From NCBI GenBank assembly GCA_964016885.1, contig OZ024747.1:43090001-43154000 (forward strand): a stretch of DNA of 64,000 bases. Reading direction: 5' to 3'. The notes beneath the pieces were generated by a model. It was not told where the DNA came from. It saw only the letters and a list, made by a program, of their open reading frames with translations, and searched no databases. Position numbers and translations under genes: made by a program. Source of the stretch: Eledone cirrhosa (taxonomy: Eukaryota). Positions within the stretch are counted from its first letter, which is position 1. Every line of letters starts with the position of its first letter. Shown piece by piece: positions 12,170 through 49,845 of this stretch.

Positions 12170-12350
12170 CTGTTTCTACTTTTGGCACAAGGCCAGCAAT
12201 TACCCAATGCATTACTGGTACCTTATTTTACCGACCCTGTAAGGATGAAAGGTTAAGTTAACCTCGGCGGGATTTGAACTAAGAATGGCAAGGGCTGTAA
12301 CTCTATGCGTCAAAGCATGACATCCGACCCACTACCGATACTGCCAATCA
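12170..12350 (-). mobile_element. tRNA-derived SINE, same family
   Basis: Reverse-complement match to 11880-12072. Confidence 0.9.
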
Positions 12351-12429
12351 CCTGTAACAAAACTCTTTCATTGGAATTTAGACAACATCAACTAAGTAGA
12401 TACACATGTATGGATCTACATGTTTTGAG

Positions 12430-14567
12430 TTACATGTATACATGCACATATGTTTCTGTATCTATACATGCACATATGTTTCTATATCTATACATGTGCA
12501 TATGTTTCTATATCTATACATGTGCATATGTTTCTGTATCTATACATGCACATATGTTTCTGTATCTATACATACACATATGTTTCTATATCTATACATG
12601 TGCATATGTTTCTATATCTATACATGTGCATATGTTTCTGTATCTATACATGCACATATGTTTCTGTATCTATACATGCACATATGTTTCTATATCTATA
12701 CATGTGCATATGTTTCTATATCTATACATGTGCATATGTTTCTATATCTATACATGTGCATATGTTTCTGTATCTATACATGTGCATATGTTTCTATATC
12801 TATACATGTGCATATGTTTCTATATCTATACATGTGCATATGTTTCTGTATCTATACATGCACATATGTGTCTGTATCTATACATGTGCATATGTTTCTA
12901 TATCTATACATGTGCATATGTTTCTATATCTATACATGTGCATATGTTTCTATATCTATACATGTGCATATGTTTCTGTATCTATACATGTGCATATGTT
13001 TCTATATCTATACATGTGCATATGTTTCTATATCTATACATGTGCATATGTTTCTGTATCTATACATGTGCATATGTTTCTATATCTATACATGTGCATA
13101 TGTTTCTATATCTATACATGTGCATATGTTTCTATATCTATACATGTGCATATGTTTCTATATCTATACATGTGCATATGTTTCTGTATCTATACATGTG
13201 CATATGTTTCTATATCTATACATGTGCATATGTTTCTATATCTATACATGTGCATATGTTTCTATATCTATACATGTGCATATGTTTCTGTATCTATACA
13301 TGTGCATATGTTTCTGTATCTATACATGTGCATATGTTTCTATATCTATACATGTGCATATGTTTCTGTATCTATACATGTGCATATGTTTCTATATCTA
13401 TACATGTGCATATGTTTCTATATCTATACATGTGCATATGTTTCTGTATCTATACATGCACATATGTGTCTGTATCTATACATGTGCATATGTTTCTATA
13501 TCTATACATGTGCATATGTTTCTATATCTATACATGTGCATATGTTTCTATATCTATACATGTGCATATGTTTCTGTATCTATACATGTGCATATGTTTC
13601 TATATCTATACATGTGCATATGTTTCTATATCTATACATGTGCATATGTTTCTATATCTATACATGTGCATATGTTTCTGTATCTATACATGTGCATATG
13701 TTTCTGTATCTATACATGTGCATATGTTTCTATATCTATACATGTGCATATGTTTCTGTATCTATACATGTGCATATGTTTCTATATCTATACATGTGCA
13801 TCATCATCATCATCATCATCATCAACGTTTAACGTCCGTGTTCCACGCTTGCATGGGTTTGGACGGGGGTAGTCCCACTTGAGGCAAGAGTGATTGTCTT
13901 GCTCGCATAGGACTGTCTGGCAGGTTTTCTACAGTTGGATGCCCTTCCTAACACCAACCACATTTACAGTGTGGGTCTGGGAGGTTTTTACCGTGTTGCC
14001 TACACGGCCACATTACAGCGTGGACTGTGTGTTTTTTTGTCGTGACACCTACACGATCTCATTTGTTTCGGCCTCGATGGCGCGGCACCAACATAACTTT
14101 ACATAGAACGGGGTGGTGTGGATCGGGTGGGGGTGGGGGTGGTGGGACGGGGTGTATTTTGTTAGAGATGCCTACTGGCTGGAGTAGGTTTTACTATATA
14201 TTTAGGTAAGGCGGGTCTTCTCTGTTACTGAGTACCGCCAAAGGTCTCGGTCCAGTGACATTGTCTTGGAGAGGTGTAAGTGTGTGATGTCGGAGTTTAT
14301 CAGCTCGTCCCAGGTTTTTCTAGGTCTGCCTATTCCGTGACTACCGTCTATCTTTATTGCCCTGCACTTTGTTATACAGCTATCGACTTTCATGCGCATC
14401 ACGTGTCCATACCAACGTAGCCTTCTCTCGAGTAAACAACATCTGATCCCTCTTATCTCTAATTTTTTCCTTAGTTCGTTTATGCTTTGCCGTTCACGTA
14501 TATTACTGTTACATGTTTCTATATCTATACATGTGCATATGTTTCTATATCTATACATGTGCATATG
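12430..14567. repeat. 26-bp minisatellite (TATACATGTGCATATGTTTCTRTATC), ~53 copies, interrupted by an RTE
   Basis: Homogeneous 26-bp period over 12430-13800, resuming at 14510-14567. Confidence 0.97.
13799..14514 (-). mobile_element. 5'-truncated RTE LINE, family A
   Basis: ORF 14202-14564(-) is identical in its RTE part to 6135-6533; (CAT)n tail. Confidence 0.92.
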
Positions 14568-15514: not shown

Positions 15515-15860
15515 GTATACATTTCAATCAGGACAAAATTTTGTTGTAAAAAATCCCTTCACTTGCTCATCAAAAAATTTAATTTGTGCCATTAAATGTA
15601 AAGGATGCAATGAAGATTATATAGGACAAACTAAACTCACTCTCAGAAACAGAATGACAATTCATCGCCAACAATTACGAGACCCTACCACAAGACAGAT
15701 ACCACTCAGTGCATATCTAGACATATGCGCAAGTGATAAGACACCCAAATTCCAAGTCTTCCCATTTTATCTTTGCGCTGACAATACAACAGAACAAATA
15801 CGAATAAATAAGCAAAATATGTTTATTCAAAAATATAAACAAGCATTAAATATAGTTTAA
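15515..15860 (+). CDS. PLE GIY-YIG endonuclease domain (5'-truncated element; 3' UTR to ~16610)
   Basis: TCSSKNLIC.IKCKGC.EDYIGQT..LRNRMTIHR pattern typical of PLE endonucleases. Confidence 0.85.
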
Positions 15861-16508
15861 TATACATTATGTTAATTCCATAACGTGCTAACCATCCAAA
15901 CAGACACATACATACACACACCACACACATAACACCTTCTATATTCGAAAATAAAAACCAGAGCTAAATAAATCTTAACATACGTTAATACTCTAACACC
16001 TTAACATGCTTACCATATCCCTCAAACACACATAACTCCCTCCCCCATTTCTACTAATGGAATCATCTTCCTACACACACACACACCAGCACACAAATAA
16101 AAATACATATCTCTACTTTCTTTATTTCAATAGAAAGTCTGAATTCTGACACCCCACCACATCAGCCATACTCACTGAACCAAAACAATTCTCCCCCATC
16201 CCTTTTGTTTGGCACACAATTCTCTAAATGACTACAAAAAAATTCCCAAATATGGGTACGAAATTTAATGCACTTATTCACGTGACTGAGCCCCCCCCCC
16301 CTTTTTTTTTAAAGGCAAATATAATAAGAACTTTGTAACACGAACTGGCGTGGAATTTATTATACTTATTCACATGACAGGCATCAACCAGCCAAATTAC
16401 TTTTCTAAAAACTTAGCATTTCGAGCCACTTTTTTCCATATAAAACAGAAGTAACATTCGAACACCAACCAGATGCGAGAAAAACCTCAAACCCCCCATC
16501 TCAATTCT

Positions 16509-16546
16509 ACTTTTGAAAAGCACAAGAACTGCAAAACCGGTAAAGG
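16509..16546 (+). ncRNA. Decayed U3-A8 variant hammerhead in the PLE 3' end
   Basis: CTT-TTGAAAA-GCAC.AAGAA.CTGC-AAAA-CCGG-TA-AAGG; an intact homologue lies at 42842-42879. Confidence 0.6.
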
Positions 16547-16849
16547 AACCAAATAAATATTTTTAAAAAGACTCCGGTTGCATTTTCGAATTTATCTTTT
16601 TTCCTTATATATAAATAAAGAGAGAGTGTGAGAGGGAGTGAGTGAGTGAGAGAGAGAGAGAGAGTGAGAGAGAGAGAGAGAGAGATGGTTTCTTACATGG
16701 AATATAGTCCTTTTTATTGGAATTGAGACATCTACTAAGTAATTATGTCTCTCTGTATATGTGCGTGTGCATGTATGTGTGTATCTGGGCAGATAAGGAT
16801 GTCATTTCATTGCATGTGTGAATCTGTATGTTTTGAATTATATATATAT

Positions 16850-17070
16850 AAGTGGTTACACAACAGTTAGTTCACCATACCGAGAACAATTGTTTCACCT
16901 TAGCGGATCCTCAGCTCGTAAAAAAGATTACGAGCTGAGGATCCGCTAAGGTGAAACAATTGTTCTCGGTATGGTGAACTAACTGTTGTGTAACCACTTC
17001 TACCTAACTCATCCCATGGACTGAGTGCTCTACCACTACGGATATTTCCTTCCAGTGTTCTACCACTATA
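16850..17070 (+). mobile_element. Fold-back PLE-type 3' end in (TA)n
   Basis: Perfect 72-bp arms 16850-16921 / 16928-16999 with a 6-nt loop; plus arm extends to ~17070. Confidence 0.8.
16931..16968 (+). ncRNA. Minimal type I hammerhead (mirror copy 16881-16918 on minus strand)
   Basis: CGAG-CTGAGGA-TCC.GCTAA.GGT-GAAA-CAATTG-TT-CTCG; palindromic stem III. Confidence 0.8.
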
Positions 17071-31764: not shown

Positions 31765-32586
31765 TAATAGTTTCTGCTTTTGGCACAATGCCAGCAATTA
31801 TCCTAGTACATTACTGGTACTTTATTTTATCGACCCCCGTAAGGATGAAAGGCAAAATTAACCTTGGCTAGATTTGAACGCAGATCGTAAAGGGACGTAA
31901 CTATGCTAGAAAGCATGGTGTCTGACCCTCTACCGATACTACCAATCCACCACCCTAGCATGGTGTCTGACCCTCTACCGATACTACCAATCCACCACCC
32001 TAGCATGGTGTCTGACCCTCTACCGATACTACCAATCCACCACCCTAGCATGGTGTCTGACCCTCTACCGATACTACCAATCCACCACCCTAGCATGGTG
32101 TCTGACCCTCTACCGATACTACCAATCCACCACCCTAGCATGGTGTCTGACCCTCTACCGATACTACCAATCCACCACCCTAGCATGGTGTCTGACCCTC
32201 TACCGATACTACCAATCCACCGCCCTAGCATGGTGTCTGACCCTCTACCGATACTACCAATCCACCGCCCTAGCATGGTGTCTGACCCTCTACCGATACT
32301 ACCAATCCACCACCCTAGCATGGTGTCTGACCCTCTACCGATACTACCAATCCACCACCCTAACATGGTGTCTGACCCTCTACCGATACTACCAATCCAC
32401 CACCCTAGCATGGTGTCTGACCCTCTACCGATACTACCAATCCACCACCCTAGCATGGTGTCTGACCCTCTACCGATACTACCAATCCACCGCCCTAGCA
32501 TGGTGTCTGACCCTCTACCGATACTACCAATCCACCACCCTAGCATGGTGTATGACCCTCTACCGATACTGCCAATTCACCGCCCT
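31765..32586 (-). repeat. SINE whose 45-bp 5' head is amplified ~15 times in tandem
   Basis: Unit AGCATGGTGTCTGACCCTCTACCGATACTACCAATCCACCACCCT over 31911-32586, contiguous with SINE body 31765-31910. Confidence 0.93.
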
Positions 32587-32814
32587 TTATAGGAATAATA
32601 TTAAGAAAGATGCTGTGTTTACATAAATCATTTATTCATTATAATTATTTCTATGGCATCTTGTATGCCGTCAGAGTACAGCAGTTGCATCTGTTGCTGT
32701 CATCTTTTTCTATATAACATTTATTTATTTGAGTCTACATATTGTATAGAATTGTATGCCACTAATGTCTTACCAAAGTATAATATAGACTAATATATCT
32801 AATCTATCTAATCT

Positions 32815-34661: not shown

Positions 34662-34827
34662 ATATATACACGTATATAGATTTTGAGTTTATGTTGGTTG
34701 TATACCAACACCTCAGTATGCAGGCTGGAGCACTCGACGAAGTGCGCAGGTTGGTTTGGTTACTCCGGAGTAGTGTAAAATAAAGTTAAATAAAAAGTCA
34801 AATGATTAAAATTTAGCTTCGTTTATT

Positions 34828-34882
34828 ACTGCTATATATATTTCAGTGACAGCCATCTTTGGCTGTGACCTCTTCAGGCAGT
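34828..34882 (-). ncRNA. PLE pLTR hammerhead ribozyme
   Basis: Reverse complement of 38317-38371. Confidence 0.88.
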
Positions 34883-35769
34883 TTGAATTAGTATGGTATA
34901 GACAAGTACATATGTTGTTGAGGTGTATAATATTGTCAATACTCTGATATGCCCAGTTCCTGGTTGGGTTGTTATTTCACTGAGGAACTGGAATCATATG
35001 AATTCAAACAAACGAATTTCAGTGTCAAGGTCCTCTTCTCCTCTCATTGGTCATCTCATAGAGGTGGTGGTGGTGGTGGTGGGGGGTGGTGGGGGTTCTT
35101 CCATGTATATGAAGAAATATAAGGCAATAAATGAAGAAAACAGAAAATAAATAAATAATATAATAAAATAATTAATATAATTTGTATAATTTGAAAATAA
35201 ATAAATAAATAGAGAATAAAGAATAAAGAATAAAGAATAAATGAAAAATTGGTGAAAAACTAATGAAAATGAATATGGAGAAGTGAAAAATAATGTAGGA
35301 TAAAGTGTGTGTGTGCTATAACCAATCTCAAGGTCAGAAATATGTTGGATAGATTGGTATGAGGCCAAGATGTTAAGATAAGATAATCAAACTAAATGTG
35401 TTTGTGTTATAATCAATCTCAACTTAAAAATAAATATAAGGTGATACAGTGAAGAGGGCAGAAAACAAATAACAAATTAATAAAGAGAAATCAAGATTTA
35501 AAATTGGAACTTGAAAATCAGAAATCTAGTAAATTAAAAAGTGTTTGTGTTATATAGATGTTGGCCAAATTATAATGGCTGTGTCCGATTCTATCTCTAG
35601 GCTATCATGGTGTCTGCTCAGCCTGGGTTGTTCCCTATGGCTTGAGGGGAGTTCACAACCTAGGGTGTTGTTACTGCCCATATAGCTTGAGGGAGGTCTG
35701 GCCGAGAGGTGTTTTCATGTTCTGTAGAATTCCCTATAGCTTGAGGGGAGTTCACATCTTCTTGTGTTG

Positions 35770-37456: not shown

Positions 37457-38316
37457 CTCAAGATATATGGACAGTAGCAACACAAGAAGATGTGAACTCC
37501 CCTCAGGCTATAGGGACTTCTACAGAACATGAAAACACCTCTCGGCCAGACCTCCCTCAAGCTATATGGACAGTAACAACACCCTAGGTTGTGAACTACC
37601 CTCAAGCCATAGGGAACAACCCAGGCTGAGCAGACACTCTATATTCTTTATTCGTTATTCTCTATTTATTTATTTATTTTCAAATTATACAAATTATATT
37701 AATTATTTTATTATATTATTTATTTATTTTCTGTTTTCTTCATTTATTGCCTTATATTTCTTCATATACATGGAAGAACCCCCCCCCCCACCACCTCTAT
37801 GAGAGATGGTGGCAGGAGGGATGAAGAAAAGACACACACTGGATACTTCTAAATTGTTAGCAGCAGCAAGATATAAGCTGACCACAACACCAACAACACT
37901 ACCAAAATAATGGTAGAGGTCAAATGTACTTAACAATAGCAAACAAAAACACTACAGGGAACCTCACCCCAGAAAGAATTCTATAGACTTCTGACTGAGG
38001 AATGCTCCCAGAACTGACCAATGGGAAGTTTGACACTTTTTTTGTTATTTTGTTCCTTTAACACCTTGTCCCTTCTACCATTTTATCAATTTTTTAAGCT
38101 AACTCCAACAATAACAACACTTAGAATGAGGAATGTTCTAATAACTGACCAATGAGAGGAGAATAGGACCTTGACACTGAAATTCGTTTGTTTGAATTCA
38201 TATGATTCCAGTTCCTCGGTGAAATAACAACCCAACCAGGAACTGGGCATATCAGAGTATTGACAATATTATACACCTCAACAACATATGTACTTGTCTA
38301 TACCATACTAATTCAA

Positions 38317-38371
38317 ACTGCCTGAAGAGGTCACAGCCAAAGATGGCTGTCACTGAAATATATATAGCAGT
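38317..38371 (+). ncRNA. PLE pLTR hammerhead ribozyme
   Basis: ACTGC-CTGAAGA-GGTCACAGCC.AAAGAT.GGCTGTCACT-GAAA-TATATA-TA-GCAGT. Confidence 0.88.
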
Positions 38372-38426
38372 AATAAACGAAGCTAAGTTTTAATCATTTG
38401 ACTTTTTATTTAACTTTATTATACAC

Positions 38427-42676: not shown

Positions 42677-42841
42677 ATATATATATATATATATATATTT
42701 ATATTAGAAAGTGAGGTTTTTTTTACAAAATGAAAAATAACCGAGGTGTCCTACACGAGTGGAAGTATAAAGAAAAAGGGATGAAATCGAAAATGCAACT
42801 GAAGTCTTATTTTTTTAAAAAATATATATATTTATTTGGTT

Positions 42842-42879
42842 CCTTTACCGGTTTCGCAGTTCTTCTGCTTTTCAAAAGG
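42842..42879 (-). ncRNA. Minimal hammerhead, U3-A8 core variant, in PLE 3' fragment 42704-42912
   Basis: CCTT-TTGAAAA-GCAG.AAGAA.CTGC-GAAA-CCGG-TA-AAGG. Confidence 0.8.
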
Positions 42880-42913
42880 TGAGTTGAGATGGAGGGTCTG
42901 TGGTTTTTCTCAC

Positions 42914-43014
<101 letters not shown>

Positions 43015-49221: not shown

Positions 49222-49812
49222 TTTCTGAATTTGTTTAGCAAGATTCTTTATCTGAAATCGTGTGTTGAAACCGATATTGTTATACTTTGGGAGGGTCATG
49301 TTGCCAATAAGAAACACACGCACCAGTTGCTTTCACTTCAATTTATTATAATAAATTTATAATAAATTTATAAATTTATAAATTTCTGGTTGGTTGGTTG
49401 GTTCCACAACCAGATAGTTGTTTATATATTGTCATAGTTCTTTCGTCACACACTCTGTGACCTCTTCAGTGACTGGGGATTCCTTTCTTTGTTTCTGTGC
49501 CTCTCCTTTGTTCTGTCCTGCGCCATTTTGTTTCTGAGCACACAACACACACACAGAAACAAAATGCCGTAGGACAGAACAAAGGAGAGGCACAGAAACA
49601 AAGAAAGGAATCCCCAGTCACTGAAGAGGTCACAGAGTGTGTGACGAAAGAACTATGACAATATATAAACAACTATCTGGTTGTGGAACCAACCAATCAA
49701 CCAGAAATTTATAAATTTATAAATTTATTATAAATTTATTATAATAAATTGAAGTGAAAGCAACTGGTGCGTGTGTTTCTTATTGGCAACATGACCCTCC
49801 CAAAGTGTAACA

Positions 49813-49815
<3 letters not shown>
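49217..49815 (-). mobile_element. Fold-back HHR element, copy 2; HHRs at 49431-49474(-) and 49617-49659(+)
   Basis: ~260-bp inverted arms; same family as 48100-48612; decayed relative at ~57190-57485. Confidence 0.8.

Positions 49816-49845
<30 letters not shown>

Follow-up and report, generated by a model that had tools for sequence, protein, structure and literature searches.

The window and its features

The window is a stretch of 64,000 nucleotides of the Eledone cirrhosa genome (contig OZ024747.1, positions 43,090,001 to 43,154,000), to which all plain coordinates given here refer. It holds two copies of a hammerhead motif, each in a remnant of the same PLE family, called family A here (Table 1). 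Both remnants are 5′-truncated, passive stubs, and the one at 42842 is a solo stub.

Table 1. Features of PLE family A in the window and the data on which they are based.
Feature	Position	Strand	Basis
Solo 5′-truncated pLTR stub (216 bp) of family A, between (TA)n runs	42700..42915	minus	~95% identical to the L062 pLTR (full-length copy)
Minimal type I hammerhead motif, U3-A8 core	42842..42879	minus	Sequence; 30-nt centre with 11,539 exact genome copies
Core strand U3-U4-G5-A6-A7-A8-A9; U3 at 42875, A8 at 42870	42869..42875	minus	Sequence, family counts
Stem II GCAG/CUGC, 4 bp, perfect, G10.1-C11.1 at the base, 5-nt loop AAGAA	42856..42868	minus	Predicted pairing 0.94; double compensation in family B
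Stem III, palindromic (A15.1-CCGG-U16.1), predicted to pair two RNA copies by a 6-bp helix	42847..42852	minus	Self-duplex −8.3 kcal/mol, homodimer MFE
Predicted cut	between A17 (42846) and 42845	minus	Hammerhead 42842..42879
Older 5′-truncated family A copy: end of GIY-YIG frame, 3′ UTR, pLTR	15515..16617	plus	blastn pieces 80-88% to L062
C-terminal 113 aa of RT-EN frame, GIY-YIG part only	15519..15860	plus	tblastn 88.5% to residues 663-775; translation
Decayed hammerhead copy, U3-A8 kept, G12A at 16533	16509..16546	plus	Sequence

An earlier note on this DNA had tied the motif to an autonomous PLE by way of the ORF 15515-15860, which starts at a (TA)n run. The tie holds through open ORF1 and RT-EN frames found elsewhere in the genome, but this ORF itself is no more than the last 113 residues of such a frame. 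The RT of the family gave no match anywhere in the 64-kb window, and Pfam gave none for the 113-residue piece (15519-15860) alone. This piece has a Gln near its C-terminus where full-length copies have a Glu.

The second hammerhead copy, at 16509-16546, matches the motif at 42842-42879 at 35 of 38 bases, and U3-A8 is common to both. That it has the same core had been pointed out before; the U3-A8 pair is indeed kept, but a change at G12 had been overlooked. The three differences are G12A and one mismatch in each of the two stems, C-C in stem II and A-G in stem I. G12 is described as the general base of the hammerhead (PMC8495972). This copy is considered decayed because G12A changes the general base and stems I and II are both mismatched.

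An unrelated hammerhead-like motif, with a canonical CUGAAGA core, a long stem II and a palindromic UAUAUA stem III, is present at 38318-38370 (+) and 34829-34881 (−). These motifs sit in a 290-nt inverted repeat (34773-35062 / 38137-38426), between the arms of which there is no match to the family A protein. The window also contains a 26-nt tandem array (12278-13880), a 45-nt tandem array (31777-32706), a hairpin at 49274-49816 (263-nt arms, 17-nt loop) and a 156-nt palindromic element (16847-17002).

The hammerhead motif at 42842-42879

Read on its own strand, from 42879 to 42842, the motif consists in order of CCUU, UUGAAAA, GCAG-AAGAA-CUGC, GAAA, CCGG, UA and AAGG. Stem I (CCUU/AAGG) has four perfect base pairs. 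The 3′ core strand is G12-A13-A14-A15.1 and is followed by the palindrome CCGG and by U16.1-A17, which makes GUA the predicted cut triplet. The core is complete at U4, G5, A6, A9, G12, A13, A14, A15.1-U16.1 and H17; positions 3 and 8 form a Watson-Crick pair, U3-A8, and the literal CUGANGA is absent.

Stems I and II are predicted to form a three-way junction around the core, with pairing probabilities of 0.76 and 0.94, respectively. Within one RNA, stem III would close a 2-nt loop, and it is therefore unable to close alone, having only two bases to close around. U3 may also pair with A17 (predicted probability 0.61 in the window copy), in an alternative register that extends stem I. A loop-loop contact is not evident in the motif.

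A strict descriptor that allows any base at positions 3 and 8 finds the motif at 42842-42879 as its only match in the window, and gives no match when 353 kb of PLE loci are block-shuffled 20 times. The minimal hammerhead with a U3-A8 core read there earlier is thus confirmed, on the minus strand. The expectation that standard searches would miss such motifs holds for Rfam: at E ≤ 10, the region 42780-42920 gives four matches and no hammerhead family, and over the whole window there is no hammerhead family among the 150 matches listed of 207.

Family A in the genome

The genome searched amounts to 3.0 Gb in 1,796 contigs. The 30-nt pattern of the motif has 11,539 exact copies genome-wide with U3-A8, compared to none for a control with the reversed pattern. 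With the rest of the exact pattern unchanged, C3 occurs in 50 copies, all of them C3-A8, and U3-G8 in 23, while the C3-G8 version has no copy genome-wide. The single-change copies (C3-A8 and U3-G8), at their rate, look like mutations that arose after insertion. These counts bear out the proposal that U3-A8 is a family trait and not the result of decay, and the consensus of the genomic copies, which had been suggested as a check, is not CUGANGA. A looser pattern which spans family A and its sister family B has 25,854 matches genome-wide.

Stem I occurs in two forms in family A. The perfect stem I noted before is that of the window copy (4 bp), but it characterizes only one subfamily; the other form has 3 bp and a mismatch, and accounts for about half the contig depth of one DNA run. 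The predicted pairing probability of stem I is 0.03 in the older family A form.

A sister motif with the canonical C3-G8 core and an identical stem III (CCGG) was also looked for; its pattern has 152 genome matches, compared to 205 for the control. Many of the 152 belong to a low-copy repeat with a CUGAUGA core, a CCGG stem III and a GUC site (L121-L150), with no family A protein match in five of its loci. The 152 also include a CUGAGGA...GCAA repeat, which was rejected as a hammerhead since the four copies inspected lack a consistent stem I.

The element that carries the motif

A search of the genome with the endonuclease piece returned 14,653 candidates at first look, and 150 of these were scored. 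Twenty long stretches were fetched, six from hammerhead matches and 14 from endonuclease matches with long open frames, and seven of them contain open RT-EN frames of 769-791 aa. In each of these seven, the motif lies about 1.0-1.5 kb downstream of the RT-EN frame, on the same strand, in the sense-strand pLTR. Pfam detects RVT_1 in the long frames at 28.5 and 31.1 bits (cut-off 29.6) and GIY-YIG above its cut-off. These genome copies, as distinct from those of the window, thus have the layout of an EN+ PLE, with an RT (DKG, YLDD) followed by a C-terminal GIY-YIG.

Four copies (L058, L059, L061 and L062) have a 400-aa ORF1 which starts about 200 nt behind the upstream motif; the motif therefore lies, on the sense strand, about 200 nt before ORF1 of the tandem partner. 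Family A thus has autonomous-looking members, in which both ORF1 and the RT-EN frame are open. The overlap of ORF1 with the RT frame lies at U UUU UUA and is in the −1 register, so that a −1 frameshift is likely at this site. Six Ts are found at this site in 11 of 13 family A loci, the site is present in all three family B loci (L153, L155 and L157), and, irrespective of frame, a T6(A/G) run occurs near the start of the RT match in four of seven distant relatives. The legend of Fig. 1 in PMC8557442 indicates that a frameshift can separate PLE ORF1. Splicing of an intron from between ORF1 and RT, suggested by a GT...AG look-alike, was considered and rejected: such a join would, when followed by hand, lead back into the ORF1 frame.

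Copies of the pLTR are direct at both ends of L062 and head-to-head in others. The 3′ ends fall at +81 in 31 of 146 alignments and most of the others are longer, which fits an optional tail. Families A and B both have a C-X4-C-X2-C linker before the endonuclease, and the elements are flanked by (TA)n. The linker, which falls within the CX2-5CxxC pattern of the Neptune clade, the (TA)n targets and the head-to-head repeats fit the description of Neptune. Judged from these described features, the carrier is a Neptune-like EN+ PLE.

In a young subfamily of family A (L058, L060 and L061), a Tyr replaces the last His of the endonuclease CCHH motif, which the older L057 and family B (L155) keep. In several copies (e.g., L263), short internal deletions between short repeats remove the hammerhead partly or wholly. 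Full or partial PLE RT-EN genes also occur on contigs of bacterial metagenome-assembled genomes (L246-L252), six of these seven being under 4 kb; contamination by the host animal is the most likely explanation. Some homologues bear the names of bacterial symbionts.

Sister family B

The protein of family B is 56% identical to that of family A over 771 aa. The family has 6,212 exact genome matches and an open RT-EN frame of 784 aa in L155; its loci include L155:4715 (+), L157 and L091-L120. It shares the U3-A8 core with family A and differs from it by A13C, which is found in 98 of the first 100 copies listed among the 6,212 matches. Its stem I has 3 bp, all U-A, one pair having been lost compared to family A, and the predicted fold hardly forms this stem. 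Between the two families there is one double compensation in stem I and one in stem II.

Despite the 56% identity of the proteins, G5, A6, A9, G12, A14, A15.1-U16.1 and H17 are identical in A and B. Since the pLTR just upstream of the motif is also visibly conserved between the two families, as judged by eye, some of this conservation could be that of promoter DNA. Family B has been amplified in spite of A13C, an all-U-A stem I of 3 bp and a predicted fold in which that stem hardly forms, so that catalysis may be dispensable. A successful family that lacks A13 is relevant to whether cutting is obligatory for PLE hammerheads.

Covariation of positions 3 and 8

The 3-8 pair was compared in 87 related PLE loci, taken from metagenome and genome collections, with the descriptor that allows any base at both positions. 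Sense-strand matches in 21 of these loci give 20 distinct motifs: 15 have C-G, three U-A, one A-U and one G-C, without any mismatch. A permutation test of 3-8 pairing gives p = 3e-6, a value uncorrected for kinship. On the antisense strand of the PLE loci, there are two matches, both canonical motifs. It had been argued that a U-A swap preserves 3-8 pairing; in agreement with this, the pair is Watson-Crick in all 20 motifs. At the level of sequence, the conclusion that the swap is compensatory is supported.

The RT tree has 23 rows, the 66 loci without a motif match having been left out. On this tree, U3-A8 takes four changes, all forced by well-supported branches, and it is no more clustered than shuffled labels (66 of 500 shuffles as low). 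Families A and B group together (96/94), and their sister L171 (100/99) combines C3-G8 with the same short layout. Because the nearest sampled relative of A and B has C3-G8, we infer that the swap probably took place once before the A/B split, with repeated swaps elsewhere.

The A3-U8 motif (L215:1969, +) and the G3-C8 motif (L216:117, +) are natural PLE motifs with well-formed stems, represented by one example each. No natural A3-U8, G3-C8 or A13C hammerhead was found in the literature searched, but the study of dimeric PLE hammerheads by Lunse et al. (2017) may already describe A13 or 3-8 variants. A G3-C8 variant has been tested in a G17 context (PMC3884650).

These data rule against the idea that the motif, being A/U-rich, resembles a hammerhead by chance or is a canonical hammerhead that has decayed, an idea which finds some basis in the AT-rich surroundings and in the missing Rfam match. 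The absence of both reversed-control copies and C3-G8 copies next to the 11,539 exact ones, the usual PLE position of the motif, the empty shuffles and the compensated stems of family B all speak against it. Judged from sequences, it is already refuted by the family counts and the covariation, and we give it practically no credence.

A broader conjecture can be put forward tentatively, and with more doubt than conviction. The 3-8 pair would swap freely among all four Watson-Crick pairs in minimal PLE hammerheads, and the U3-A8 swap of families A and B, the U3-A17 register and the A13C change of family B would together describe a ribozyme that is throttled until the protein of the element refolds it. 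If this is true, the two families make a natural series for testing whether cutting by PLE hammerheads is necessary.

Proposed function and possible genomic footprint of cutting

We consider it fairly probable that the motif represents a minimal hammerhead of type I, carried in its pLTR by a Neptune-like PLE of high copy number, with the 3-8 pair swapped from C-G to U-A, and that the motif cuts its own transcript slowly after GUA, as a dimer paired through stem III and with help from the protein of the element. In this model, two RNA copies would pair through the palindromic stem III, for which a self-duplex of −8.3 kcal/mol is predicted and which forms in the homodimer MFE. Pairing of this kind has already been proposed for minimal PLE hammerheads (PMC4209133). 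The paired motif would then cut the transcript after GUA, at a slow rate, and the protein of the element would be a likely aid. As head-to-head copies put their motifs on opposite strands, the partners should come from direct tandems (e.g., L062) or from a second transcript.

The U-A swap would be tolerated if, as we infer, position 8 acts through its 2′-OH and needs only to pair with position 3. Activity is expected to be low, since stem I has 3 to 4 bp, a loop-loop contact is not evident and the U3-A17 register is presumably inactive. Pairing of U3 with A17 may slow cutting further, by analogy with the C3-G17 pair, which is presumed to be inactive (PMC3884650).

The genomic copies were examined for traces of cutting. 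The bases that directly follow the cut site are present in 15,889 copies; among the first 100 listed, 96 run through the site, three start exactly there and one starts 7 nt upstream. In a biased sample in which overlapping loci were kept, 54 of the 146 alignments begin 62-76 nt upstream of the cut site. Uncut RNA is thus the source of most new copies.

Two junction searches were also carried out. Among the first 100 of 424 copies without the upstream core, counted by hand, 15 junctions fall at site 0, then 6, 9, 7 and 5 at −1 to −4 and 1-4 each at −5 to −9; the remainder are indels, duplications or internal deletions. The search for junctions that reach downstream gave, in the first 100 of 250 (control 79), 18, 11, 23, 15, 15 and 10 junctions at −2 to +3. 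In that search eight were set aside as duplications or indels, and the other 92 were counted by hand, the first 30 being confirmed by a script. Site 0 is the largest bin in both searches, but the excess is weak, at most about twofold. It is confounded by (TA)n microhomology, which blurs the bins, and counts are raised at the AT-rich positions next to it as well.

An efficient monomeric ribozyme that sets the 5′ end of the RNA used for transposition would account for the copies which begin at the predicted cut (3 of the first 100, and 15 of the first 100 without the upstream core), and the window copy, with its perfect 4-bp stems I and II, is compatible with it. However, the 2-nt loop of stem III, the 96 of 100 unbiased copies that span the site, the alignments starting 62-76 nt upstream in the biased sample and the inactivity of published monomers of the same class (PMC4209133) make such a ribozyme very improbable.

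The motif could also be of hammerhead descent and no longer cut in this clade, its fold being kept for the binding or folding of the retrotransposon protein, or as a part of the pLTR promoter. The copies that run through the cut site, the predicted U3-A17 pairing in the window copy and the A13C change and U-A stem I of the successful family B are in line with a loss of cutting, as are two published observations: Naiad PLEs spread without canonical hammerheads (PMC8557442), and hammerhead mutants leave insertion unimpaired in vitro (PMC11167929). On the other side, all the catalytic positions of family A are canonical save the compensated 3-8 pair, those shared with family B have stayed the same while the proteins diverged, the tertiary 3-8 pair is important for the active fold and persists in all 20 related motifs, and the site-0 bin is the largest in both junction searches. 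We therefore regard loss of cutting as improbable, although to be taken seriously, and retain the slow, dimeric ribozyme as the preferred reading.

Comparison with known hammerheads and PLEs

The U3-A8 core is not new: it has been published both for natural hammerheads and for PLEs, one of which has an identical UUGAAAA. Perreault et al. (2011, PMC3088659) reported a natural U3-A8 covariation, the same as in family A, and stated that it had already been shown to be active in vitro. In the passages concerned, their examples are not tied to a retroelement, whereas the family A motif belongs to a PLE, and the tolerance of variant cores is attributed to tertiary contacts, which are not evident in family A. 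What is new here is tree-level evidence of selection on the 3-8 pair in PLE hammerheads, together with the single A3-U8 and G3-C8 examples. In practice, about 25,000 motifs in one genome escape Rfam and descriptors with a fixed CUGANGA.

Cervera and De la Pena (2014, PMC4209133) described U3-A8 in the Cercyon PLEs of S. mansoni, with about 1,300 matches; in their Fig. S3, S. mansoni(4) has the UUGAAAA core, and its element is a full PLE that possesses both terminal repeats. Minimal PLE hammerheads are reported there as inactive when monomeric and weakly cutting as dimers. The Cercyon motifs resemble that of family A in being type I, with a short stem I and a palindromic, rudimentary stem III, and in their location in the pLTR. 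Family A differs by having no extra base between A9 and stem II, a stem II of 4 bp and CCGG as stem III. The cut triplet is GUA in family A and GUU in S. mansoni(4), and the host element is Neptune-like in one case, with over 11,000 exact copies, and Cercyon in the other. In contrast to the A13C of family B, Fig. S3 has GAAA throughout (AGAAA in one row), but the set was collected with a fixed-core descriptor.

The carrier shares with the EN+ PLEs of the Neptune clade (Craig et al., 2021, PMC8557442; Arkhipova et al., 2013, PMC3846280), as described there, the C-terminal GIY-YIG, the C-X4-C-X2-C linker, the (TA)n targets and the head-to-head inverted pLTRs, as well as an optional 3′ tail and a hammerhead near the 3′ end. 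The young subfamily departs from these elements by its Tyr at the last His of CCHH.

Frangieh et al. (2024, PMC11167929) reported that the hammerhead of an Anolis PLE cuts only with the protein of the element and is dispensable for insertion in vitro. As described by them, this Poseidon element, PAc, resembles family A in its pLTR hammerhead, in two RT start sites that lead to an optional tail and in genomic copies that come mainly from uncut RNA. Unlike family A, it has C3-G8, a hammerhead that overlaps the start codon and a single described ORF, and it belongs to the Penelope/Poseidon clade.
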